Below are positions 3,824-25,767 of a stretch of 64,000 nt of DNA, piece after piece. The position numbers and the translations under genes were made by a program. Source of the stretch: Candidatus Falkowbacteria bacterium (GTDB taxonomy: Bacteria > Patescibacteriota > Patescibacteriia > XYB2-FULL-38-15); assembly GCA_037440105.1 (NCBI GenBank), contig JBBIUS010000002.1, forward strand, positions 2,685 to 66,684. The letters are read 5' to 3'. The notes under the pieces were generated by a model. The model saw nothing but the letters and a program-made list of their open reading frames with translations. It searched no databases and was not told where the DNA came from. Within the stretch, counting starts at the first letter, position 1. The number at the start of each line of letters is the position of its first letter.

Positions 3824-4654
3824 ATGAAAGGAAAGTATTTAAACTTTATTTTTATTAATTTATTTTTTGTTGCCGCAGTGTTTTTTTGCATTTTTACTTT
3901 ACTTCAAGGGAAAGCAGCGCAGAATTTTTTAGTGATTTCAATTTTCACTCTTGTTATTTTTCTTTTTTCACTTTGGCACTCTTTAATTAAATTTGGTTTT
4001 AAAAATGCTTTTTTCTTTTTATTTATTGCTCTTTTTTTAAGTTTTGCGGCAGAAGTTATCGGCGTAAATTTGGGTTATGAATTGCAAGGGTATTACAAAT
4101 ATTCAGATTTTTTGGGGTTTAAAATTCTTGATGTTCCGGTTTTGGTAATTTTGATGTGGGTTTCCGTAATTTACATTTCTTACCAAGTTTCAGAGCATAT
4201 CACCGATTTTAGATTTGAAAAAAATACAACTTTTTTACAGAAATTTTGGGTTAGTATTTGGAGCGCTTTTTTAACTGCTTTAATCACTGTTGCTTGGGAT
4301 ATCGGTCTTGACCCATTGGCTGTAAATTTAGGCTGGTGGGTTTGGGAAAAGGGCGGAGAATATTTTGGCGTGCCAATAGGTAATTTTATTGGTTGGATGA
4401 TTATTTCTTTTATCATTGTTTTTATTTTTAAATTATTTTTTGAAAAAGAATATTTAGAGAAAGAAACAGTAGCGGATTACGCTCCTTTAATTTGTTATAC
4501 GCTTTTGTGTTTTTCAACAATTTTTTTAGCGCTTTCTCAAGGAAGTTCGCTTTTTGCTTTTATTGTTTTTGTTAGCATGTTTCCAATTATTTCTATAATG
4601 ATTGTAAGGCTTTTGGTTATTCAACTTAGATTGCCGAGGCAATATAAAAAATGA
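3824..4654 (+). CDS. Polytopic membrane protein, possibly carotenoid-biosynthesis-associated (DUF422-like) family
   Basis: 276-aa ORF with many hydrophobic segments. The W/G-rich block DPLAVNLGWWVWEKGGEYFGVPIGNFIGW resembles that family from memory. Function is uncertain. Confidence 0.5.
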   Translation: MKGKYLNFIFINLFFVAAVFFCIFTLLQGKAAQNFLVISIFTLVIFLFSLWHSLIKFGFKNAFFFLFIALFLSFAAEVIGVNLGYELQGYYKYSDFLGFKILDVPVLVILMWVSVIYISYQVSEHITDFRFEKNTTFLQKFWVSIWSAFLTALITVAWDIGLDPLAVNLGWWVWEKGGEYFGVPIGNFIGWMIISFIIVFIFKLFFEKEYLEKETVADYAPLICYTLLCFSTIFLALSQGSSLFAFIVFVSMFPIISIMIVRLLVIQLRLPRQYKK

Positions 4655-6089: not shown

Positions 6090-7478
6090 ATGATTACTAT
6101 TGATTTAAGCTATTTTGAAATATTAGGAACAATGTCGCCTCTTGTGATTATGTGGCGCCTTTTTATTGACGGCGGATGGATTCCGCTTTTAGCAGTTTTT
6201 CTCTGGGGTTTTTGGAATTTGTGGGTATTTTCTCGGCAAATTAAATATAGTGAAAAAAGGAGATTTGTCCTTTTAGCCGTTGATATTCCTAAAGGCTCTG
6301 AGCAGTCGCCAAAAGCCGTAGAAAATATTTTTGCTCATTTAGACGGAGCGCACGGCACAGAAACTCTTTGGGAAAAATATTGGGAGGGGAAGACTCAAGA
6401 TTGGTTTAGTTTTGAAATTGTGAGCATTGGGGGATATATTCAATTTTTAGTTTACACAAGGGATAAATTTCGTGATTTGGTTGAAGCAGCAATTTATGCG
6501 CAATATCCTGACGCAGAAATTACAGAGGTAACAGATTACACTGATGCGGCGCCAAAAAAATTCCCAGACCCTGAATATGAGATGTTTGGCGCAGAATTTA
6601 TAAATGCTAAACCGGAAGTTTATCCGATTAGAACTTATGTTCAGTTTGAACATTCTTTAACTCAAGAGTTAAAAGATCCAATGGCTGCTTTACTTGAGAA
6701 TATGGGCAAAATTGGCAAAGGAGAGCAGATTTGGTTTCAAATCGTTATAACTCCGATTAGCCAGAAAGAATGGAGGGCAGCCGGAGAAAAATTAGTTAAG
6801 AAATTAATCGGAGTAAAGGTTGAAGAGAAAAAAACTCTCTTAGGTAAAATAGTAGACTTGCCAGCAAAAATAGTGAGCCCAGCCTTAGAGCAAGTCCTTG
6901 GTCCAACAGCCACCCAAGGGAAAAAATCTGGAGCTGAAGTGCCGAGTTTAGTGCCCTATCTTTCTCCCGGTGAGCGCTCTACTATTGAAGCAATCCAAAA
7001 TAAAATCGCGAAAATTGGTTTTAAAACTAAAATTAGGTTTATTTACTTAGGCAGAAAAGAAGTTTTTCAAAAAACGCGGGGTGTTAATCCAATGGTTGGG
7101 GCAATCAAGCAGTTTAACACTCTTGATTGTCAAAGTTTAAAACCAGAATTAAAAAGAGTCGGCACAAGAGCGCACTATGTTTTTATTAAATGGAGGATTA
7201 AAAGAAGGCAAAATAAATTAATGCGGGCTTACCGGGCACGGAGTAATTGGCGGGGCGCCGGGAAAGGTTTTGTTTTAAATATTGAAGAATTAGCAACTCT
7301 TTGGCATTTTCCGGCTCCCTGGATTAAAGCGCCTCCTGTTAAAGTTGTTGAATCTAAGCGCGGAGTACCGCCAGTGAATTTACCAATTGAGAGGTCAAGT
7401 TTTATAAAACCAATTGCTGAGATAGAAAAGGAAAAACAAGAAATAGAAGGCCCGCCGACAGAGTTGCCGGTTGAATAG
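6090..7478 (+). CDS. Membrane protein of unknown function, upstream partner of the TraD-like ATPase
   Basis: 462 aa. Two N-terminal TM helices followed by a soluble domain with no recognisable catalytic motif. The stop lies 30 nt before the co-oriented ATPase gene. Confidence 0.75.
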   Translation: MITIDLSYFEILGTMSPLVIMWRLFIDGGWIPLLAVFLWGFWNLWVFSRQIKYSEKRRFVLLAVDIPKGSEQSPKAVENIFAHLDGAHGTETLWEKYWEGKTQDWFSFEIVSIGGYIQFLVYTRDKFRDLVEAAIYAQYPDAEITEVTDYTDAAPKKFPDPEYEMFGAEFINAKPEVYPIRTYVQFEHSLTQELKDPMAALLENMGKIGKGEQIWFQIVITPISQKEWRAAGEKLVKKLIGVKVEEKKTLLGKIVDLPAKIVSPALEQVLGPTATQGKKSGAEVPSLVPYLSPGERSTIEAIQNKIAKIGFKTKIRFIYLGRKEVFQKTRGVNPMVGAIKQFNTLDCQSLKPELKRVGTRAHYVFIKWRIKRRQNKLMRAYRARSNWRGAGKGFVLNIEELATLWHFPAPWIKAPPVKVVESKRGVPPVNLPIERSSFIKPIAEIEKEKQEIEGPPTELPVE

Positions 7479-7508
7479 GCTTATAGGTCATAAAGTTTAA
7501 TAAGTCTT

Positions 7509-9266
7509 ATGAACAACCAAGAAATAGCAATTTTTGGTGAAACAAATTTCCGTGGCCAGCGGAGGCGTTTTGGCATTAAAACCGACGATCGGCGTCGGCA
7601 TATGTATTTGATTGGTAAAACCGGCATGGGCAAAACGACGACTTTAGAAAACATGATCATCTCAGATATTAGAGCCGGCTACGGCGTTGGTGTTGTTGAC
7701 CCTCATGGCGATTTGGCTGAGAAAATTCTTGACTTTATTCCTTCAAATCGAATTAATGATGTTATTTATTTTAATCCAGCAGACTTAGATTATCCGATAG
7801 CTTTCAATATTTTAGAAGCGATTGACCACAAGTATAAACATTTAGTTGCTTCTGGTATGATGGGAGTTTTTAAAAAAATTTGGCCAGACGTTTGGTCAGC
7901 CCGAATGGAATACATTTTAAATAACACAGTTCTTGCTCTTCTAGATTATCCTGGCGCGACCATGCTTGGGATCAACAGAATGTTGGCTGACAGAAATTAC
8001 CGTAAAAAAGTCATCGCTAAGATTAAAGACCCGGTTGTTAAAGCTTTTTGGGTTGATGAGTTTGCCAGATATAATGAAAGATTTGCTACTGAGGCGATAG
8101 CCCCAATTCAAAATAAAGTTGGCCAATTTCTTTCTGCTTCAATTATTAGAAATATCGTTGGTCAAGTTAAATCAACCATTGACATGAGAAAAATAATGGA
8201 TGAAGGGAAGATATTCATTATGAATTTGGCCAAAGGAAGAATTGGAGAGGACGCGAGTGCTCTTTTAGGAGGGATGTTAATTACGCGTCTTCAACTCGCG
8301 GCTATGGGCAGAGTAGATATTCCTGAAGAAGAGCGCAGAGATTTTTATCTTTATGTTGATGAATTCCAAAATTTTGCAACTTTAAGCTTTGCTAATATTT
8401 TGTCAGAAGCAAGAAAATATCGTTTAAATTTAATTTTAGCCCATCAATATATTGAGCAGTTAGATGAAAAAGTAGCCGCCGCGATCTTTGGCAATGTTGG
8501 TACTATAATTTGTTTTAGGGTCGGAGCGGCTGATGCTGAAGAATTAGTCAAAGAATTTACGCCGTATTTTACAGAAGAAGATTTAGTTAATCTTACAAAA
8601 TATGACATGTATATAAAATTGATGATTGACGGCGTTGCCTCAAGTCCGTTTTCTGCTTCTGGCTTGCCGCCGGTCACCGGCGCAACGGGCAACAGAGAAA
8701 AAGTGATTAAAGTTTCAAGAGAACGATATGCCAAGCCAAGGGAATTAATCGAAGAGAAAATTATACGCTGGAGCGGCGTGGAAATTTTTGAAAAAGGCGA
8801 AGAAGCATTAGAAAAAGAAATTGAAGAAAAAATTTTGAAAAAGAAAGAAGAGTCAACTCTTGGGGAGGAGCCTTTAAAGGAAACTAGTCTGGAAGAAAAG
8901 GCTAGAGCCGTTAGAGAGGCAATATTAGAAAGGCCTAAAGCGAAATCAGTAGATTTCCTAAAGCAGATTGTTTTCGAAGAAGCGAAAGAGAAACAAGAAA
9001 AAGAAAAAGAAGTAAAGGTTGAATTACCAAAACCGGCATCACAAATTGTAACTCCTCCAGAAGGACCGCCAGAAAAGAAAAAAAAGACATACGAAGAGTT
9101 GTTTCCTTACGAAGTTAAATGTTCATTATGCGGCAAGGATACTCGGGTTTCATTTAAGCCCGATGGAAAGCGCCCGGTTTACTGCAAAGAGTGCTTGAGA
9201 AAAGTAAAAGAAAAAGAAAGGCAAGCGAAGAAGGCTCAAAAGAGCAGTCAGCCACAAACCAAATAA
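7509..9266 (+). CDS. VirD4/TraD/TraG-like P-loop NTPase (no TM) fused to a C-terminal CxxC-x17-CxxC zinc ribbon
   Basis: 585 aa. Walker A GKTGMGKTT, Walker B-like FYLYVDEFQNF and LILAHQYIEQL. A K/E-rich linker precedes C-terminal CSLC-x17-CKEC (nt 9120-9194). Confidence 0.8.
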   Translation: MNNQEIAIFGETNFRGQRRRFGIKTDDRRRHMYLIGKTGMGKTTTLENMIISDIRAGYGVGVVDPHGDLAEKILDFIPSNRINDVIYFNPADLDYPIAFNILEAIDHKYKHLVASGMMGVFKKIWPDVWSARMEYILNNTVLALLDYPGATMLGINRMLADRNYRKKVIAKIKDPVVKAFWVDEFARYNERFATEAIAPIQNKVGQFLSASIIRNIVGQVKSTIDMRKIMDEGKIFIMNLAKGRIGEDASALLGGMLITRLQLAAMGRVDIPEEERRDFYLYVDEFQNFATLSFANILSEARKYRLNLILAHQYIEQLDEKVAAAIFGNVGTIICFRVGAADAEELVKEFTPYFTEEDLVNLTKYDMYIKLMIDGVASSPFSASGLPPVTGATGNREKVIKVSRERYAKPRELIEEKIIRWSGVEIFEKGEEALEKEIEEKILKKKEESTLGEEPLKETSLEEKARAVREAILERPKAKSVDFLKQIVFEEAKEKQEKEKEVKVELPKPASQIVTPPEGPPEKKKKTYEELFPYEVKCSLCGKDTRVSFKPDGKRPVYCKECLRKVKEKERQAKKAQKSSQPQTK

Positions 9267-9465
9267 AGCACGCATTCAAAATTCTCTGGTTAGCTGATTT
9301 GCGGCGGAAAATTATGAGTCAGGAATTAAGAATTATGGTTTAATTTGATATCCCTTAATTCATGATTCATGCTGCATGCTTCAGAAAAATTTGAATGTGT
9401 TTTTTAAATCTCAGATTTGGGGTATAATGCAAGGTAAGAATTTAATCTAAATTGCGTCTATTTAT

Positions 9466-13115: not shown

Positions 13116-14897
13116 ATGACAGCTGATCAATTAAGAATAAAGTTTCTAGAATATTTTAAATTGAAGGGGCATACTATCTTGCCTTCTGCTTCTTTAATTC
13201 CAGAACATGACCCGACCGTTCTTTTTACTACGGCTGGCATGCACCCGTTAGTTCCATTTTTATTAGGCGAAAAGCATCCAGGCGGAAAAAGATTAGCTAA
13301 TATCCAAAAATGCATAAGAACCGGAGATATTGATGAGGTCGGCGATAATTGGCATCTAACCTTTTTTGAAATGCTTGGCAATTGGTCGCTTGGCGATTAT
13401 TTTAAGAAGGAAGCAATAGAAATGTCTTGGGAGTTTTTAACGGACAGAAAATGGTTGGGTTTGAATCCTCAAAAAATAGCTGTTTCTGTTTTTGTTGGTG
13501 ATCAAGATGCGCCATTTGATGAGGAGGCGTACAATCACTGGCGTAAAATTGGAATACCTGAAGCGCGGATTGCCAAATTAGGCAAAGAAGACAATTGGTG
13601 GGGTCCGGCAGGGGAAACAGGTCCGTGCGGGCCAGATACAGAAATTTTTTATTGGTCAGGCAACGAGCCCGTTCCGGATAAATTTGACCCAAAAGATAAA
13701 AGATGGACAGAAATTTGGAACAATGTTTTTATGCAGTATAATAAGACAGCAGAAGGGAAGTACGTGCCGCTAAAACAGAAAAATATTGATACTGGTATGG
13801 GCCTTGAGCGGACTGTAGCAGCGCTTCAGGGTAAAGCCAGTGTTTATGGAACAGAACTTTTTCAACCAATTATTAAAAAAATAATTGAAATAGCGGGCGT
13901 GCCGACAAGTACGGCAGATGAATTTTATTCCGTCAATCAAAAGGCAATCAGAATAATTGCTGACCACCTTAAAGCCGCGACATTTATTTTAGGCGATCCG
14001 ATTGGTGTTACACCTTCTAATTTGCGCCAAGGTTATGTTTTGCGTCGGTTAATTAGAAGAGCTATCCGCTACGCTAAACTGATTGGCATTGATACAAAAA
14101 AAGATTTCGCTGCGCCCATTGCTAGCGCAGTGATAGAAATTTATAAAGAAGTTTATCCAGAACTCGCAAAAAACGAAAGGAGAATTTTTTCTGAATTAAA
14201 TCTTGAAGAGAAACGATTTGAAAAAACGCTGGAAGTAGGATTAAAAGAATTTAACAAAATGTTAAAAGACGGAATGATCAGCGGAAAAGAAGCATTTATT
14301 CTTTTTTCCACCTATGGCTTTCCTCTTGAAATGACGCGCGAGTTAGTCATTGAAAAAGGCCTTGAAATTAACGAGAAAGAATTTGTAGAAGAATTTAAAA
14401 AGCATCAAGAGCTTTCCCGGACTGCTTCGGCCGGCCAGTTTAAAGGTGGTCTGAGCGATGCGAGCGAAGAGACAAAAAAACTTCATACCGCGACCCATCT
14501 TTTGCACGCGGCTTTACGCGAGGTGCTTGGTCCGCATGTTAAACAGCGTGGGAGCAATATTACGCCTGAGCGGTTGCGTTTTGATTTTTCCCATCCGCAA
14601 AAGTTAAGCGAATCAGAGATTAAGCGGATTAGCGAATTAGTTAATCAAAAAATTAAAGAAGGTTTGTCAGTGAAATGCGAAGAAATGAGCGTTGAGGAAG
14701 CAAAAAAGGCCGGAGCGATTGGTCTTTTTGAGCAAAAATACGGTGAGAAGGTAAAAGTTTATTCAATTGGTGACTTTAGTAAGGAAATCTGTGGTGGGCC
14801 GCATGTAAAAAATACCAAAGAATTAGGCCAGTTTAAGATTCAAAAAGAAGAAGCTTCGAGCGCCGGCGTGCGAAGAATAAAAGCAGTGTTGACATAA
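13116..14897 (+). CDS. alaS: Alanyl-tRNA synthetase, short form lacking the C-Ala domain
   Basis: 593 aa. N-terminal core FLEYFKLKGHTILPSASLIP and DPTVLFTTAGM. Editing-domain motifs HTATHLLHAAL and CGGPH. The ORF ends just after the editing domain. Confidence 0.9.
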   Translation: MTADQLRIKFLEYFKLKGHTILPSASLIPEHDPTVLFTTAGMHPLVPFLLGEKHPGGKRLANIQKCIRTGDIDEVGDNWHLTFFEMLGNWSLGDYFKKEAIEMSWEFLTDRKWLGLNPQKIAVSVFVGDQDAPFDEEAYNHWRKIGIPEARIAKLGKEDNWWGPAGETGPCGPDTEIFYWSGNEPVPDKFDPKDKRWTEIWNNVFMQYNKTAEGKYVPLKQKNIDTGMGLERTVAALQGKASVYGTELFQPIIKKIIEIAGVPTSTADEFYSVNQKAIRIIADHLKAATFILGDPIGVTPSNLRQGYVLRRLIRRAIRYAKLIGIDTKKDFAAPIASAVIEIYKEVYPELAKNERRIFSELNLEEKRFEKTLEVGLKEFNKMLKDGMISGKEAFILFSTYGFPLEMTRELVIEKGLEINEKEFVEEFKKHQELSRTASAGQFKGGLSDASEETKKLHTATHLLHAALREVLGPHVKQRGSNITPERLRFDFSHPQKLSESEIKRISELVNQKIKEGLSVKCEEMSVEEAKKAGAIGLFEQKYGEKVKVYSIGDFSKEICGGPHVKNTKELGQFKIQKEEASSAGVRRIKAVLT

Positions 14898-18499: not shown

Positions 18500-18883
18500 A
18501 TGGCTTTAAAAATTGAAAGGAAAACACATACAGTTGACGCTCGAGGTAAAATTTTAGGCCGGTTAGCTTCAGAAATCGCCATACTTCTTCGTGGCAAACA
18601 TAAACCGAGTTTTCGGCCAAATCTCGATATGGGAGATTTTGTGGATGTAATAAATGTCTCGGGATTAAAATTCACTGGAAATAAATTATCTCAAAAAGAA
18701 TATTTTCATTATACCGGTTATCCTGGCGGAGAAAAATATGAAAAATTAGAAAGCCTTTTTAAGAAGAATCCGGCGATAGTTTTGTTTCGTACAGTTAAAA
18801 ACATGTTACCTAGAAATAAATTAAGAGCCAAAATGATAAAAAGATTAACAGTCAACGGGGAAAAACTTTCTTGGCGTCTGTAG
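18500..18883 (+). CDS. rplM: 50S ribosomal protein L13
   Basis: 127 aa. DARGKILGRLASEIAILLRGKHKPSFRPNLDMGDFV. Confidence 0.95.
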   Translation: MALKIERKTHTVDARGKILGRLASEIAILLRGKHKPSFRPNLDMGDFVDVINVSGLKFTGNKLSQKEYFHYTGYPGGEKYEKLESLFKKNPAIVLFRTVKNMLPRNKLRAKMIKRLTVNGEKLSWRL

Positions 18884-18963: not shown

Positions 18964-19524
18964 ATGGTAAAAAAGGGAACTAAAAAAACAAAAGTAAAAG
19001 CAAAAACAGCTGCAAAAAAAGCTGAGGTTATCGTTTTTAAAGAAAAACCAAAACCTAAAATTGGAGAAGAAAAAGTTAAGAAAGTAAAATCAATCAGCGG
19101 GGAGGAATTGGTAGAAAAAGTAGCGGCAAAAAAAAGAACATATCTTTTTGCGGTTGGGAGAAGAAAAAGCGGGATCGCTCAAGTGAAAATTTATAAAAAT
19201 GGCAAGGGTGTAATCACTGTGAACGGAAAAGATTATAGACAGTATTTCCCGTTTTTTGAATTTCAAGAAATAATTAATGCTCCTTTAAGATCAGTTGGCC
19301 AAAGCGATAAACTTGATGTTGAAGTAAAGATAAACGGCGGCGGGAAGCGAGGTCAAGCAGAAGCTATAAGATTGGGAATTAGTCGAGCTTTGATTAAATT
19401 AAACCAAAATTTTAAAAAGAATCTGCGTCGGGCTGGGTTTTTAACTAGAGATGCAAGAGTTAAAGAAAGAAAGAAATATGGTCTAAAACGCGCCAGGCGC
19501 GCCCCGCAGTGGCAAAAGCGTTAA
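18964..19524 (+). CDS. rpsI: 30S ribosomal protein S9 with Lys-rich N-terminal extension
   Basis: 186 aa. S9 core (AVGRRKSGIAQVKIYKNGKG...GGGKRGQAEAIRLGISRAL) and a C-terminal ...QWQKR. The first ~55 aa are a K-rich extension. Confidence 0.95.
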   Translation: MVKKGTKKTKVKAKTAAKKAEVIVFKEKPKPKIGEEKVKKVKSISGEELVEKVAAKKRTYLFAVGRRKSGIAQVKIYKNGKGVITVNGKDYRQYFPFFEFQEIINAPLRSVGQSDKLDVEVKINGGGKRGQAEAIRLGISRALIKLNQNFKKNLRRAGFLTRDARVKERKKYGLKRARRAPQWQKR

Positions 19525-19649
19525 GCTTTTGCCGCGAGGACAGGGAATGGTCGGAAACCATAAGGTTTCCGATTTGCGGAAACATTAAAACCGCAGGGTT
19601 TTAAGGAGTCCCAACCGAAGCGTTGGGACGACCCGTAAGTGGCAAAAGC
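19523..19649 (+). ncRNA. Candidate structured RNA / inserted element: three hairpins closed by a 9-bp stem
   Basis: Closing stem GCTTTTGCC (19523-19531) / GGCAAAAGC (19641-19649). Hairpins are TCGGAAACC-ataa-GGTTTCCGA (19551-19572), TGCGG...CCGCA (19575-19595) and GTCCCAAC-cgaagc-GTTGGGAC (19608-19629). It is GC-rich relative to its surroundings. The class is unknown. Confidence 0.35.
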
Positions 19650-19667
19650 GATAAGCCTTAGTTTATT

Positions 19668-19756
19668 AAATCAACCACGGATTTTATTGCACGGATAACA
19701 TGGGTATTTGATTTATTTGTGTAAATCCTAGTGTAGCAAAAATCCGTGGTTGATTT
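19668..19756. repeat. Intergenic hairpin with 18-bp perfect stem
   Basis: AAATCAACCACGGATTTT (19668-19685) is the exact reverse complement of AAAATCCGTGGTTGATTT (19739-19756). Confidence 0.8.
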
Positions 19757-19788
19757 GTATTCAAAATTAAGTTAAAATTAGGTAATGT

Positions 19789-21270
19789 ATGGAAACTTTG
19801 GCGCCACAAAAAATTGTTAGGAACACAATTTATTTAACTTTAGCCACAGTCGGACAAAAAGTTCTGGCTTTTTTATATTTTATTTTAATTGCAAGATTAG
19901 CTGGCGTTTCTGATACGGGCAGATATTTCTTTGTGGTTTCTTTCACAACTATTTTTTCTATCTTTATTGATCTTGGCTTGTCTTCAGTTTTGATTCGCGA
20001 ATCAGCAAAAAGCAGGGAAGTGGCCGGGAAATATTTAGCCAATATTTTAGGAGCGAAAACAGTTCTCGGATTTTTAACCTATTTGGCTGTAATTGTAACA
20101 ATCAATGTTCTTGGCTATCCACCGGCTGTAAAAATCATGGTTTACCTCTCTGGCCTTGTTATGATTTTTGATTCTTTCCACATGACTTTTTATGCTATTT
20201 TCAGGGGTTTCCAGAATTTAAAATACGAATCATTCGGAGTGGTTTTTGGACAATTAATGACTATTATTTTTGGCAGTTTTAGTTTATTCTTTGGAGCGCC
20301 TTTGTATTTTTTAATTTTAGCCCTTCTTTGCGGCAGCGTTTTTAATTTTCTTTTTTCATTTATTTTGATTTTTAAAAAAACCAATATTCGGCTGCACTTG
20401 TCTTTTGATAAAACTGTACTTTTTGCTTTATTTAAAATCGCTTATCCTTTCGCCTTGGCTGGAATTTTTGTCAAGGTTTATTCTTATCTTGATGCAGTTT
20501 TGCTTTCTAAAATGGTTGGAGATGCGGCAGTTGGTTTTTGGAGCGTGGCTTACAAAATAACCTATGCTTTTCAATTTATTCCTATGGCTTTTTCGGCAGC
20601 CATGTTTCCGGCCATGAGCGCTTATTTTGTTTCTGATAAAATTCTTCTGCGTAAAACTTTTGAGCGGGCGATTTTTTATTTGGCAATTTTAGCGGTTCCT
20701 ATTGCTTTTGGCATTTTTTCTCTAGCCGAACCAATTATTTTAAAACTCTATGGTTCATCTTATGCTGCTTCAGTTGCGCCGCTACAAGTTGCTATTTTTG
20801 CCTTGATTTTCATTTTTCTGAATTTTCCAGTCGGCTCGCTTTTGAACGCCTGCGACCGTCAAATGATAAATACTGCCGTTATGGGCGTGGCTATGGTAAT
20901 AAATGTTTTATTAAATGTTATCCTAATTCCATTTTATAGTTTTATAGGTGCGGCGGTGGCAGCTTTAGTTTCGCACGTCTTACTTTTTGTTTTGGGTTTA
21001 ATTTTTGCCAATCAAGTGGTGACTTTTAGTAAAAAATTTCTTTTTGGTTCGTTGGGTAAAATTATTTTATCGGCTGGGCTAATGAGTGCAGTAATAATTT
21101 ATTTGAGGCCGTACATCTCTTGGATTATTTTAATTCCGCTTGGCGCTTTGGTTTATTTTAGCGTTTTGTTTTTAATTCGCGGAGTTGAAAAAAGGGATGT
21201 AATAAATATTTTGAAAGTTTTGAAGAAAGAAGAAGCAGTCCAGATGATCGATGGCAAAGAAAGAGTGTAA
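19789..21270 (+). CDS. MOP-superfamily flippase (Wzx/MurJ-type polysaccharide or lipid-II flippase)
   Basis: 493 aa with ~14 predicted TM segments. N-terminus NTIYLTLATVGQKVLAFLYFILIARLAG is typical of polysaccharide-biosynthesis flippases. Confidence 0.75.
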   Translation: METLAPQKIVRNTIYLTLATVGQKVLAFLYFILIARLAGVSDTGRYFFVVSFTTIFSIFIDLGLSSVLIRESAKSREVAGKYLANILGAKTVLGFLTYLAVIVTINVLGYPPAVKIMVYLSGLVMIFDSFHMTFYAIFRGFQNLKYESFGVVFGQLMTIIFGSFSLFFGAPLYFLILALLCGSVFNFLFSFILIFKKTNIRLHLSFDKTVLFALFKIAYPFALAGIFVKVYSYLDAVLLSKMVGDAAVGFWSVAYKITYAFQFIPMAFSAAMFPAMSAYFVSDKILLRKTFERAIFYLAILAVPIAFGIFSLAEPIILKLYGSSYAASVAPLQVAIFALIFIFLNFPVGSLLNACDRQMINTAVMGVAMVINVLLNVILIPFYSFIGAAVAALVSHVLLFVLGLIFANQVVTFSKKFLFGSLGKIILSAGLMSAVIIYLRPYISWIILIPLGALVYFSVLFLIRGVEKRDVINILKVLKKEEAVQMIDGKERV

Positions 21271-24012: not shown

Positions 24013-24307
24013 CGGCGCGCGGCTATCCGTAGTTTTGCGAAGGCAACCGCAGTTGCCGAAGCAAAATTACGGATAGCCGCTGTTCTGCGATGTCCGCGAG
24101 CGCTCCGAGCAAAGCGAGGACGCGCGAGCGGTGAGCAGAACAGCGGGAACCGCGGCGCATTAGGCAAAATCCAGTGAGCGAAGCGAGCGGATTTTGCCTA
24201 ACGTTTCTGCATAGCCGAAGTTGGCTGGCTGTATAATATCGCACGAAGTGCGGCACAGCCAGCCAATTTGGGCGAGTTCTTTGAAAAAGAGCGAGCCGGA
24301 TATGCAG
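24013..24307. other. GC-rich island of four to five consecutive strong hairpins (candidate structured RNA or recombination/mobile-element sequence)
   Basis: Stems are 24019-24038/24061-24080 (20 bp, with an inner 6-bp stem), 24079-24088/24135-24144 (10 bp), 24160-24172/24189-24201 (13 bp) and 24221-24232/24255-24266 (12 bp, inner CGCAC-gaa-GTGCG). An outer pair is 24207-24213/24301-24307. The motif GAGCGAGC recurs in the loops. Confidence 0.5.
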
Positions 24308-24945: not shown

Positions 24946-25767
24946 ATGAGTCAATATTTGGAAAAAACCGAACAAGAATTGCGCCTGCGCAATTACAGCC
25001 AAAAGACGATTAAAAGTTATCTTGGATGTTTGGCTGATTACCTCGCCGTGGCACATCATAATTCAGAAAATATTGATCTAGAGTTGATAAAAAATTTTTT
25101 ATTAGGAAAGCAAAGCAAGGGTTATGCTCCGCAAACCGTGAATCTCTATTTGAACGCCATAAAATTTTTTTATCGCGACGTTTTAAAAATTTCCCAAAGA
25201 ATAGATTTGAAATTTGCCAAGCAGGGTCAACGCTTGCCGATCGTTCTCTCGCGGGAAGAAGTTGACAGGCTAATCGGAGTAATAAAAAATGCCAAACATC
25301 GGTTGATGCTAGCCCTAGCTTATGGCGCTGGTTTGCGCGTCAGCGAGGTAATAAACTTGCGCATCAGAGACATTGACTTGCAAGAACTTACCATCCATAT
25401 AAAACAAACTAAAGGCAAAAAAGACCGCCTGACCGTGTTTCCAAAAAAATTAAAATCCGAGGTAGCCGCGCTTATTGCGCTCCGTGACCCAAATGATTTT
25501 GTATTTAGAAGCGAACGCGGTGGAAAATTAACCGAACGCGCTGCGCAAGTTATTTTTGAACGAGCAAAAGAGGCGGCAAAAATCAAAAAAAAGGCGACCT
25601 TTCATTCTCTCCGCCACAGTTTTGCCACGCATCTTTTGGAAAACGGAGTTGATGTCCGCTATGTTCAGGAACTTTTGGGTCACCAAAACATTCGCACCAC
25701 GCAGATTTACACCCATGTTACAAATCCTGCCATCAAAAATATTAGAAGTCCGCTAGATAGAACATGA
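24946..25767 (+). CDS. Tyrosine site-specific recombinase (Xer / integron-integrase-like clade, without the IntI-specific insertion)
   Basis: 273 aa. LAYGAGLRVSEV, HSLRHSFATHLL and LLGHQNIRTTQIYTHV, with a C-terminal ...IRSPLD tail. Confidence 0.9.
   Translation: MSQYLEKTEQELRLRNYSQKTIKSYLGCLADYLAVAHHNSENIDLELIKNFLLGKQSKGYAPQTVNLYLNAIKFFYRDVLKISQRIDLKFAKQGQRLPIVLSREEVDRLIGVIKNAKHRLMLALAYGAGLRVSEVINLRIRDIDLQELTIHIKQTKGKKDRLTVFPKKLKSEVAALIALRDPNDFVFRSERGGKLTERAAQVIFERAKEAAKIKKKATFHSLRHSFATHLLENGVDVRYVQELLGHQNIRTTQIYTHVTNPAIKNIRSPLDRT

Follow-up and report, generated by a model that had tools for sequence, protein, structure and literature searches.

A very small, gene-less folded element behind rpsI of a Candidatus Falkowbacteria genome, probably one of a family that replaces gene ends in Patescibacteria

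The 64,000-nucleotide stretch of DNA analysed here (the window; contig JBBIUS010000002.1, positions 2,685 to 66,684, assembly GCA_037440105.1) belongs to a Candidatus Falkowbacteria bacterium, an AT-rich member of the Patescibacteria (candidate phyla radiation, CPR) whose genome comprises ~0.96 Mb in 85 contigs with a bin contamination of 6%. Behind rpsI, the gene of ribosomal protein S9, the window carries a GC-rich folded segment of ~130 bases bracketed by two copies of the rpsI 3' end. Our results indicate that this segment is probably a mobile element that replaces a gene end, and that it belongs to a multi-copy family of minute, gene-less and strongly structured elements, probably integrative ones, of Patescibacteria. 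An earlier sequence-only reading had interpreted the segment as an element that enters the 3' end of a gene while restoring it, and this interpretation is supported by the empty sites found in related genomes, by the many copies of the core and by the covariation of its helices. Throughout the text, G000 denotes the source genome, the other G numbers denote relatives and genomes of the same class, and L numbers denote individual loci.

Gene-end copies at filled and empty sites

The end of rpsI is present twice in the window (Table 1). Local alignment of the two termini gave 26 matches in 31 columns, including GTGGCAAAAGCG and TAAGC, and a 17/18 match between rpsI termini within 130 nt is far above chance. 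Copy 1 supplies the last codons of the gene (CCG CAG TGG CAA AAG CGT TAA, stop at 19522-19524), and S9 is full length through it, while the terminus 130 nt downstream still translates as T R K W Q K R followed by a stop, with the synonymous arginine change (CGT to CGA) already pointed out from the sequence. The same duplication of the rpsI end was found in G002, G005 and G007. In the window and three relatives, the copies of WQKR-stop differ only at third codon positions and in the stop codon, and the codon adjacent to the junction (Q) is altered in copy 2.

Comparison of the rpsI region within the family revealed both filled (G000, G002, G005 and G007) and empty sites (G001, G003, G004, G006, G008 and G009), as the sequence-only reading had anticipated. 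In G001, G004 and G008 the rpsI stop is followed immediately by ..AAAAAATGCTATAATAAAAGGGACG.., in G003 this motif stands after ~170 nt of other sequence, and the same flank lies behind copy 2 in the filled sites of G002, G005 and G007. Because the flank of copy 2 is colinear with the flank of the empty sites, copy 2 can be regarded as the resident terminus in its original position. The flank downstream of the window's own rpsI element differs from that behind copy 2 of the relatives, and in G006 and G009 the element is absent and the flank is rearranged. A maximum-likelihood tree built from 1.3 kb of the rplQ-rplM-rpsI region placed the filled G000 at the base of the family and the filled G002, G005 and G007 in the same genus as the empty G006, G008 and G009, which requires at least three gains or precise losses of the rpsI element. 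At two of the empty sites, L091 (G009) and L093 (G006), the first 100 nt behind the rpsI stop include a small hairpin with TAGCGGAAAT, identical to the J2/3 motif of the core described below, which may be left over from the element or may resemble it by chance.

Across six independent pairs of gene-end copies, 5 of the 21 differing codons are non-synonymous, against 17.7 expected, and none of 5000 simulations reached the observed value. At L136, APQFSKR-stop is encoded twice with all eight codons different (GCA CCG CAG TTT TCA AAA CGA TAG versus GCT CCT CAA TTC TCG AAG CGT TAA), and at pyrG of the source genome the first 13 codon differences between the working and the displaced end, across FHPEFKSRPLKPHPL, are all synonymous. 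Since a terminus that is no longer translated would not preserve its frame during divergence to saturation at silent sites, most of this divergence should predate the insertion, so that the working gene end was probably brought by the element from another lineage. In view of the synonymous-only differences across loci, we infer that copy 1 of rpsI in the window also arrived with the element. Alternatively, the element may toggle in and out, with both ends staying under selection. In pyrG of G131, the 75-nt repeat is 100% identical, which is consistent with a recent insertion.

Protein-coding targets are entered at the 3' end (rpsI, pyrG and gyrB) or at the 5' end (rnhA, lepA/typA, fusA and rplK). 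Besides the four filled sites mentioned above, rpsI is occupied at L136, in a Gribaldobacteria genome (L096) and in G032, a genome of another family in which two tandem elements are accompanied by three S9 termini (PQWAKR, QGAKR and PQSAKR, each followed by a stop). Insertions in pyrG were found in G131, G032 and the source genome, and insertions in gyrB at L154 and L172, while the 5'-end insertions affect rnhA (G006), lepA (G057), a typA/lepA-like GTPase gene (L101), rplK (L173 and L088) and fusA (L175), the last with two elements in tandem. The element lies in sense orientation at 3' targets and antisense to the gene at 5' targets, so that the folding strand reads from the gene interior outward. 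The duplicated gene end, referred to as B, begins in a highly conserved motif, namely the T-loop of tRNAs, AHID/AHVD of GTPases, FHPEF of PyrG, AGKANPAP of L11 and PQWxKR of S9. By inspection, the spacer at 5' targets gives a TATAAA-like sequence before the restored start codon. In lepA of G057 (L070) and rnhA of G006 (L043), the repeat ends a few bases past the start codon and the region upstream now consists of element sequence (AGTAGTATAAAACCTCTCTT-ATG at lepA), so that the promoter and the 5' untranslated region (UTR) of these two genes seem to come from the element.

The pyrG insertions differ in detail. The element at the 3' end of pyrG in the source genome (contig C6, ~14190-14460, minus strand, outside the window) has the stop codon TGA inside the inverted copy (GGGTGAAAC), and its core carries an extra insertion of ~110 nt with a long closing stem between J2/3 and P3. 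The pyrG-borne segment measures 84 nt in both G032 and G131, though recognisable identity ends earlier, and in G032 the protein has gained a new tail, VRVSMAGRKG-stop, partly encoded by the inverted copy, in place of IKAAISTRR-stop.

Fold, architecture and distribution of the family

The segment behind rpsI folds strongly, with an RNA minimum free energy (MFE) of -73.4 kcal/mol compared to -49.3 +/- 3.5 in shuffled sequences (z = -6.8), and the three hairpins predicted between the gene-end copies were confirmed as P2, P3 and P4 (Table 1). The closing stem P1 is formed by GCTTTTGCC(GC) at 19525-19535 and (GT)GGCAAAAGC at 19639-19649; a 9-bp stem had been proposed with its 3' strand correctly placed at 19641-49 and its 5' strand, 19523-31, displaced by 2 nt. 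An alternative helix between GCTTTTGCC and 19511-19519, also proposed earlier, is present and is favoured in the MFE fold when copy 1 is included. The two closing helices exist because the element is built as a direct copy, an inverted copy, a core and a second direct copy, so the geometry of two mutually exclusive helices stands, but its reading as a regulatory switch found no support, and at L136 the upstream copy is the sole possible pairing partner of the inverted copy.

The description of the segment as cloverleaf-like fits its shape and fails as to tRNA identity, since its arms have 9-10, 8 and 8 bp with tetraloops, the anticodon loop is absent, and ARAGORN detected no tRNA or tmRNA in the window. 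Searches against Rfam gave no match at the gathering score across the whole window, including the models of RF00391, riboswitches, self-cleaving ribozymes, group I/II introns and ribosomal-protein leaders. With E values up to 10 and restricted to 19300-19900, the only match on the element was a partial one of 13 nt to the L31 leader, the remaining matches (two microRNA models and Teg49) were all downstream of the element, and all four scored far under their gathering scores.

Read along the folding strand, a locus begins with the body of the target gene and its end B, continues with 9-14 nt that repeat the start of B in inverted orientation and with the core, and closes with a second B and the original flank. 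The core consists of J1/2, P2, J2/3, P3 and P4 and terminates in (GA)CGAC or GAGCAGTGAG, and the (GA)CGAC motif lies directly 5' of copy 2 in the tRNA-Tyr, tRNA-Ser, tRNA-Met, rnhA, pyrG, lepA and G032 rpsI copies. For tRNA targets, B extends from the T-loop to the 3' end of the gene and often into the trailer with its terminator. The polarity is fixed, with the intact gene 5' of the core in every copy with an identifiable target, and the direct repeat of the target end spans 17-98 nt across well-preserved copies. The inverted copy varies by target and is always complementary to its own target, as in tmRNA (GCGGGAAT/ATTCCCGC), tRNA-Lys (CTGGGATTC/GAATCCCAG), rnhA (CCCGGACCG/CGGTCCGGG) and lepA (TTGCCCATATT/AATATGGGCAA). 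Automatic detection of P1 was noisy at about one third of the loci, and inspected sequences were used instead. Where the two gene-end copies differ, the match of the inverted copy to copy 1 is usually as good as its match to copy 2, or better (tmRNA, tRNA-Glu(ctc), tRNA-Gly, rpsI of G002, G005, G007 and G032, and L136; the tRNA-Tyr locus of the source genome is an exception), a preference that fits an element made of B, inverted copy and core. A candidate crossover motif to the left of B, GACG, occurs in the rpsI cases and is absent at pyrG and the tRNA sites.

Covariation analysis, which the sequence-only reading had suggested, showed that P2 and P3 are maintained by compensatory changes. In 54 distinct copies, 92% of the P2/P3 cells were paired, compared to 82% in shuffles, and 15 of the 18 pairs showed compensatory changes, values that none of 500 shuffles reached; sliding the partners abolished the signal. 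These changes affect all 10 modelled pairs of P2 and five of the eight pairs of P3 (e.g., A-U to G-C or C-G at the third pair), in which 99% of the cells are paired. The sequences of P1 and P4 vary among copies with complementarity kept in each, and P4 is elsewhere replaced by a different perfect hairpin or by a GCGAAGC mini-hairpin.

The search for further core copies returned many, each bracketed in the same way. In the source genome, nhmmer identified eight clear copies, a covariance model (R1, built on P2 and P3) added a decayed one, and another is located at pyrG. Each of the other clear copies follows a tmRNA or tRNA gene of the same orientation at a distance of 30-200 nt, with tmRNA, tRNA-Tyr, -Ser, -Gln (three copies) and -Lys as targets. 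The covariance model detected 1-9 copies in eight of nine relatives of the same family. In a sample of 151 genomes from the whole class, 15 had one copy or more, and these were patchily distributed. A wider survey, based on an exact 18-mer scan with one genome per species followed by a profile filter, yielded 60 true copies at 57 loci from many candidate phyla, with lineages that include Saccharibacteria, Gribaldo-, Colwell-, Jorgensen-, Doudna-, Azam-, Wolfe- and Harrisonbacteria. Elements measure ~110-250 bp, and nearly all copies sit just 3' of a tRNA or tmRNA gene; in relatives, the tRNA targets include Glu, Gly, Met, Pro, Ala, Thr, Ile, His, Leu, Arg, Trp and others. Altogether, the target range covers well over a dozen tRNA/tmRNA genes and at least eight protein genes. 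Searches of the consulted paper library on tRNA-linked repeats and on tRNA-associated elements of Patescibacteria returned no description of this family.

Some loci show additional features. Behind tmRNA of the source genome (contig C9, 2660-2930, minus strand), the repeat of 89 nt covers the T-loop through the entire spacer plus the inverted copy and ends exactly at the boundary between inverted copy and core, so that the locus resembles 1.5 tandem units. Near-identical elements occur at the three tRNA-Gln loci of the source genome, on contigs C12 (11838-12260), C37 (3786-4330) and C44 (724-1020). At C12 the tRNA-Gln 3' end is present in three copies, and at C37 a second, decayed element (4254-4318) stands behind the first, as if added by accretion; C37 and C44 possibly represent variants from different strains inside the bin. 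At L151 (Colwellbacteria MHIY01000012.1, oriented ~1150-1300), the inverted repeat spans the acceptor strand plus the T-stem, so that the element resembles a tRNA acceptor/T-arm minihelix with the core replacing the T-loop, and no intact tRNA was found within 400 nt upstream.

Within the window, no terminator was found between rpsI and the element. A separate hairpin of 105 nt (19661-19765) lies directly 3' of copy 2, with an 18-bp perfect stem (AAATCAACCACGGATTTT / AAAATCCGTGGTTGATTT); it occurs once in the source genome and overlaps a promoter-like site at 19750-19778 ahead of the flippase gene.

Table 1. Features of the rpsI locus and of the element behind it (positions in the window)
Feature	Position	Strand	Description	Basis
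rplM	18500-18883		upstream of rpsI	
rpsI (ribosomal protein S9), complete	18964..19524	+		open reading frame (ORF); Pfam Ribosomal_S9 1.6e-41, profile 1-121/121
Copy 1 of gene end (B)	19503..19526	+	working terminus ...PQWQKR-stop	direct repeat with 19633-19656
Inverted copy of B1	19525..19535	+	GCTTTTGCCGC; 5' strand of P1; alternative hairpin with copy 1 (19511-19519)	
J1/2	19536..19550	+	purine-rich conserved junction GAGGACAGGGAATGG; family consensus GGRARGGG	two family alignments
P2 hairpin	19551..19572	+	TCGGAAACC, loop ATAA, GGTTTCCGA; 19551-59 / 19564-72	fold, covariation
J2/3	19573..19584	+	conserved TTTGCGGAAACA; family motif GCGGAA	invariant alignment columns
P3 hairpin	19585..19604	+	TTAAAACC, loop GCAG, GGTTTTAA; 19585-92 / 19597-19604	covariation
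P4 variable hairpin	19608..19629	+	GTCCCAAC, loop CGAAGC, GTTGGGAC; 19608-15 / 19622-29	fold
Core 3' end	19629..19632	+	CGAC (GACGAC in other copies); putative right-hand insertion junction	
Copy 2 of gene end	19633..19656	+	displaced resident rpsI terminus TRKWQKR-stop; 19639-19649 = P1 3' strand	
Polysaccharide flippase gene	19789-21270		after 125-nt GC-rich segment 3' of rpsI	

Insertion mechanism and competing explanations

According to the reading that we consider probable, the element enters a highly conserved gene where B begins on its inner side, the B that it carries becomes the working gene end (together with a promoter-like spacer at 5' targets), and the resident end is pushed behind the core, where it can pair with the inverted copy and close the cloverleaf-shaped fold (P1). 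In the window, S9 is completed by copy 1, and copy 2 is the retired original terminus. The element probably moves between lineages, with copy 1 carrying donor codons. Its insertion could proceed as a Campbell-type crossover in which a small intermediate, either circular or folded and single-stranded, recombines where the core end meets B1; a trans-acting enzyme or, once DNA has been taken up, the recombination system of the host would carry it out. Inverted copy and core would jointly form the cis-acting site, with the inverted copy as a duplex mimic of the target or a guide to it. Were the intermediate circular or tandem, the element's own B1 would come directly behind the core, which would give a perfect P1 and place the crossover at the inner edge of B beside the conserved core end. 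This specific insertion chemistry is advanced tentatively. A bolder version, which we judge unlikely, holds that the inverted copy is a programmable guide, through which a gene-less cloverleaf of ~100 nt of single-stranded DNA or RNA would pair with an extremely conserved motif at a gene end, direct its own insertion there and deliver a recoded gene end or a promoter plus start.

Some observations weigh against a mobile element of this kind. No mobility enzyme accompanies any of the ~100 copies examined, and a close ortholog of the tyrosine recombinase encoded in the window was found in 6 of the 15 element-positive genomes, which is about the background. The element-borne and resident ends share only ~60-65% of their nucleotides at L136 and at pyrG of the source genome, a similarity too low for these insertions to be explained by simple homologous recombination or by a long crossover region of identical sequence. 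Cores at orthologous sites are ~95-100% identical while the spacers diverge, which fits a selected in-place function no less well than pure selfishness and implies that some function of the core is under selection. Counts of G.T versus A.C pairs, partly blurred by alignment shifts, single out neither strand as the folding one. Besides, both the proposed mechanism and the explanation by DNA uptake discussed below leave the inverted copy of a new target unaccounted for.

The tyrosine recombinase of the window (273 aa, 24946-25767; Pfam Phage_integrase 1.5e-45) was considered as a candidate mover and rejected, since close orthologs occur in about half of the genomes of the class regardless of the element. 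A GC-rich hairpin cluster at 24013-24307 adjoins this recombinase gene and shows no sequence similarity to the core.

Elements moved by tyrosine integrases show the same direct-repeat geometry, likewise restore the gene end, choose the T-loop in tRNAs and accrete in tandem (PMC5357655), and the copies might be deletion remnants of such integrase-encoding elements, i.e., relics with attL and attR in which the core represents the attP arm region bound by the integrase and its helpers. Xer-like tyrosine recombinases are available in nearly all genomes of the class, and for the same reason these generic enzymes are not assessable by co-occurrence. However, among the ~100 copies from dozens of lineages none has an integrase, cargo or more than ~200 nt between gene and core, their uniform size and three-part order are not expected from independent deletions, the compensatory changes are typical of a folded single strand and not of double-stranded protein-binding arms, and a target-specific inverted copy ~95 nt from its partner is foreign to known attP sites; an origin by deletion is thus improbable. 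In line with these counts, no ORF was found inside any copy or between the repeats at ~100 loci, and the distance from gene to core was at most ~200 nt. An explanation without dedicated machinery, which we consider unlikely but a rival of real weight, relies on natural DNA uptake and host homologous recombination, with the gene body as the left arm and the duplicated end as a right arm that enables crossing into distant lineages, the core being a passenger or a stimulator of uptake or recombination. All targets are highly conserved genes in which B starts at the most conserved motifs, copy 1 has foreign synonymous codons and no enzyme co-occurs with the element, all of which favours this explanation, but it leaves unexplained the first insertion at each new target, the matching inverted copy at each target and the conservation of a covarying core. 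Moreover, RecA-type recombination works poorly on right arms as short as 17-25 nt or on arms with a mismatch at every third base, as in L136.

A host RNA element, such as a module of a 3' UTR, a tRNA trailer or a small RNA (for example, a two-helix switch controlling transcript stability, processing or termination), would account for the fold (z = -6.8), the covariation of P2 and P3, the conserved purine-rich junctions, the near identity of cores at orthologous sites whose spacers drift, and the continuity of rpsI and the element with no intervening terminator. Against it, the folding strand is antisense to rnhA, lepA, the typA-like gene, rplK and fusA with no evident promoter, many tRNA loci have a duplicated intrinsic terminator between the tRNA and the core, the distribution is patchy (15/151 genomes), close relatives with empty rpsI sites manage without the element, L136 can form only one helix and no Rfam family was matched, all of which makes a host RNA quite improbable. 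We argue that the arrangement follows a logic at the DNA level and not that of a cis-acting RNA of the host gene, because the polarity is outward from the gene, terminators often lie between tRNA genes and the core and relatives with empty sites function without the element. A retroelement product, in which the core would be the cognate RNA of a reverse transcriptase of the diversity-generating retroelement (DGR) or retron type and the copies would be insertions of complementary DNA, is highly improbable. In its favour, G009, a family genome recorded as Candidatus Falkowbacteria, has a P1-less core copy 80 nt beyond the stop codon of a DGR-type reverse transcriptase gene with bAvd nearby, and the variable closing stem resembles the a1/a2 stem of retrons. 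Nevertheless, the reverse transcriptase is missing in 4 of 10 family genomes, including G005 with its nine copies, and present in G003, which has none, a locus of G004 with an 84%-identical reverse transcriptase has no core, core and reverse transcriptase gene run convergently in G009, and the differences between copies fall at synonymous sites and are not adenine-specific. The reverse transcriptase was therefore rejected as the mover, its presence being unrelated to that of the element across genomes and its position in G009 a coincidence.

The locus in question (L058, G009:C16:56000-66173, ~6251-9400) harbors a complete DGR-like cassette beside the 5' end of a 16S rRNA gene, which encodes a target protein of 331 aa, GC-rich at its C-terminus, a bAvd-like product (Pfam 1.1e-17) and a reverse transcriptase (Pfam RVT_1) in which the motifs IGNLTSQ and YADD are present. 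The core copy there has neither P1 nor a gene-end repeat and lies on the strand opposite to the reverse transcriptase.

Comparison with known elements and biological meaning

Tandem units without genes behind tRNAs are known from Escherichia coli, where the tRNA-linked repeats (tyrT / RtT RNA, RF00391) each include a copy of the tRNA 3' end. The elements described here resemble them, more loosely than the streptococcal elements discussed below, in being gene-less units behind tRNAs and in forming tandem partial units, as in the 1.5 units at tmRNA of the source genome, but no match to RF00391 was obtained even at E values up to 10, and unlike RtT repeats they have a defined three-hairpin core, an inverted copy and protein genes among their targets. 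The attC sites of integrons and the attP site of CTX phage exist only as folded single strands whose stems imitate a duplex, and the recombinase is provided in trans. The conservation of structure with variable stem sequences suggests a possible working analogy, whereas the stem of the Patescibacteria element is specific for the target gene and is not a fixed R/L box or dif mimic. The R and L boxes and arrays beside intI and attI that define integron attC sites were not found; copies stand singly at gene ends, with no integron platform or cassette array and with no associated recombinase found.

Miniature inverted-repeat transposable elements (MITEs) and palindromic repeats are likewise small, non-autonomous, multi-copy, strongly folding and sometimes tolerated within genes. 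The family differs from them in lacking family-wide terminal inverted repeats and a short target duplication of fixed length: P1 is target-specific, the duplication of 17-98 nt is a functional gene end, often with foreign codons, and insertion is highly site-specific. As to the RNAs of retrons and DGRs, a reverse transcriptase gene was found beside one copy only, in convergent orientation, and is absent from copy-rich genomes.

The closest likeness in insertion logic concerns integrase-bearing elements of streptococci, whose targets include tRNA genes, rpsI at its 3' end and further protein genes entered at either end, and which leave direct repeats and accrete in tandem (PMC5357655). As in those elements, a conserved gene end is entered, a replacement end is supplied and a direct repeat of the target remains, rpsI and the T-loop region of tRNAs are favoured, and tandem pile-ups occur, here at rpsI of G032 and fusA of L175. 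The gene-end repeat with restoration and the coexistence of filled and empty sites are features of integrative elements that this family displays, while an integrase of its own is absent. Streptococcal elements measure 5-50 kb and encode an integrase, whereas the Patescibacteria element (~110-250 bp) has no gene and is 20-400 times smaller, and it further differs in its covarying core of single-strand type, its inverted target copy and the use of one family for many targets.

If this interpretation is correct, the logic of integrating at a gene end and replacing it would be reduced to ~130 bases with no gene, far smaller than any described integrative element, in bacteria previously regarded as having little mobile DNA. 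The ends or starts of the genes for S9, PyrG, GyrB, EF-G, L11, LepA and RNase H in Patescibacteria may then be foreign and recoded, the pseudo-termini downstream can mislead annotation and phylogeny, and the pairs of gene-end copies would serve as natural markers of horizontal transfer between lineages. Moreover, one fold that serves many targets with matching inverted copies raises the question of how targets are recognised, by guide-like pairing or by mimicry of a recombinase duplex. Should the guide version apply, the family would represent a new class of nucleic-acid-guided mobile elements whose targets are readable from their own sequence, and the element may toggle in and out of its sites with both gene ends kept under selection.

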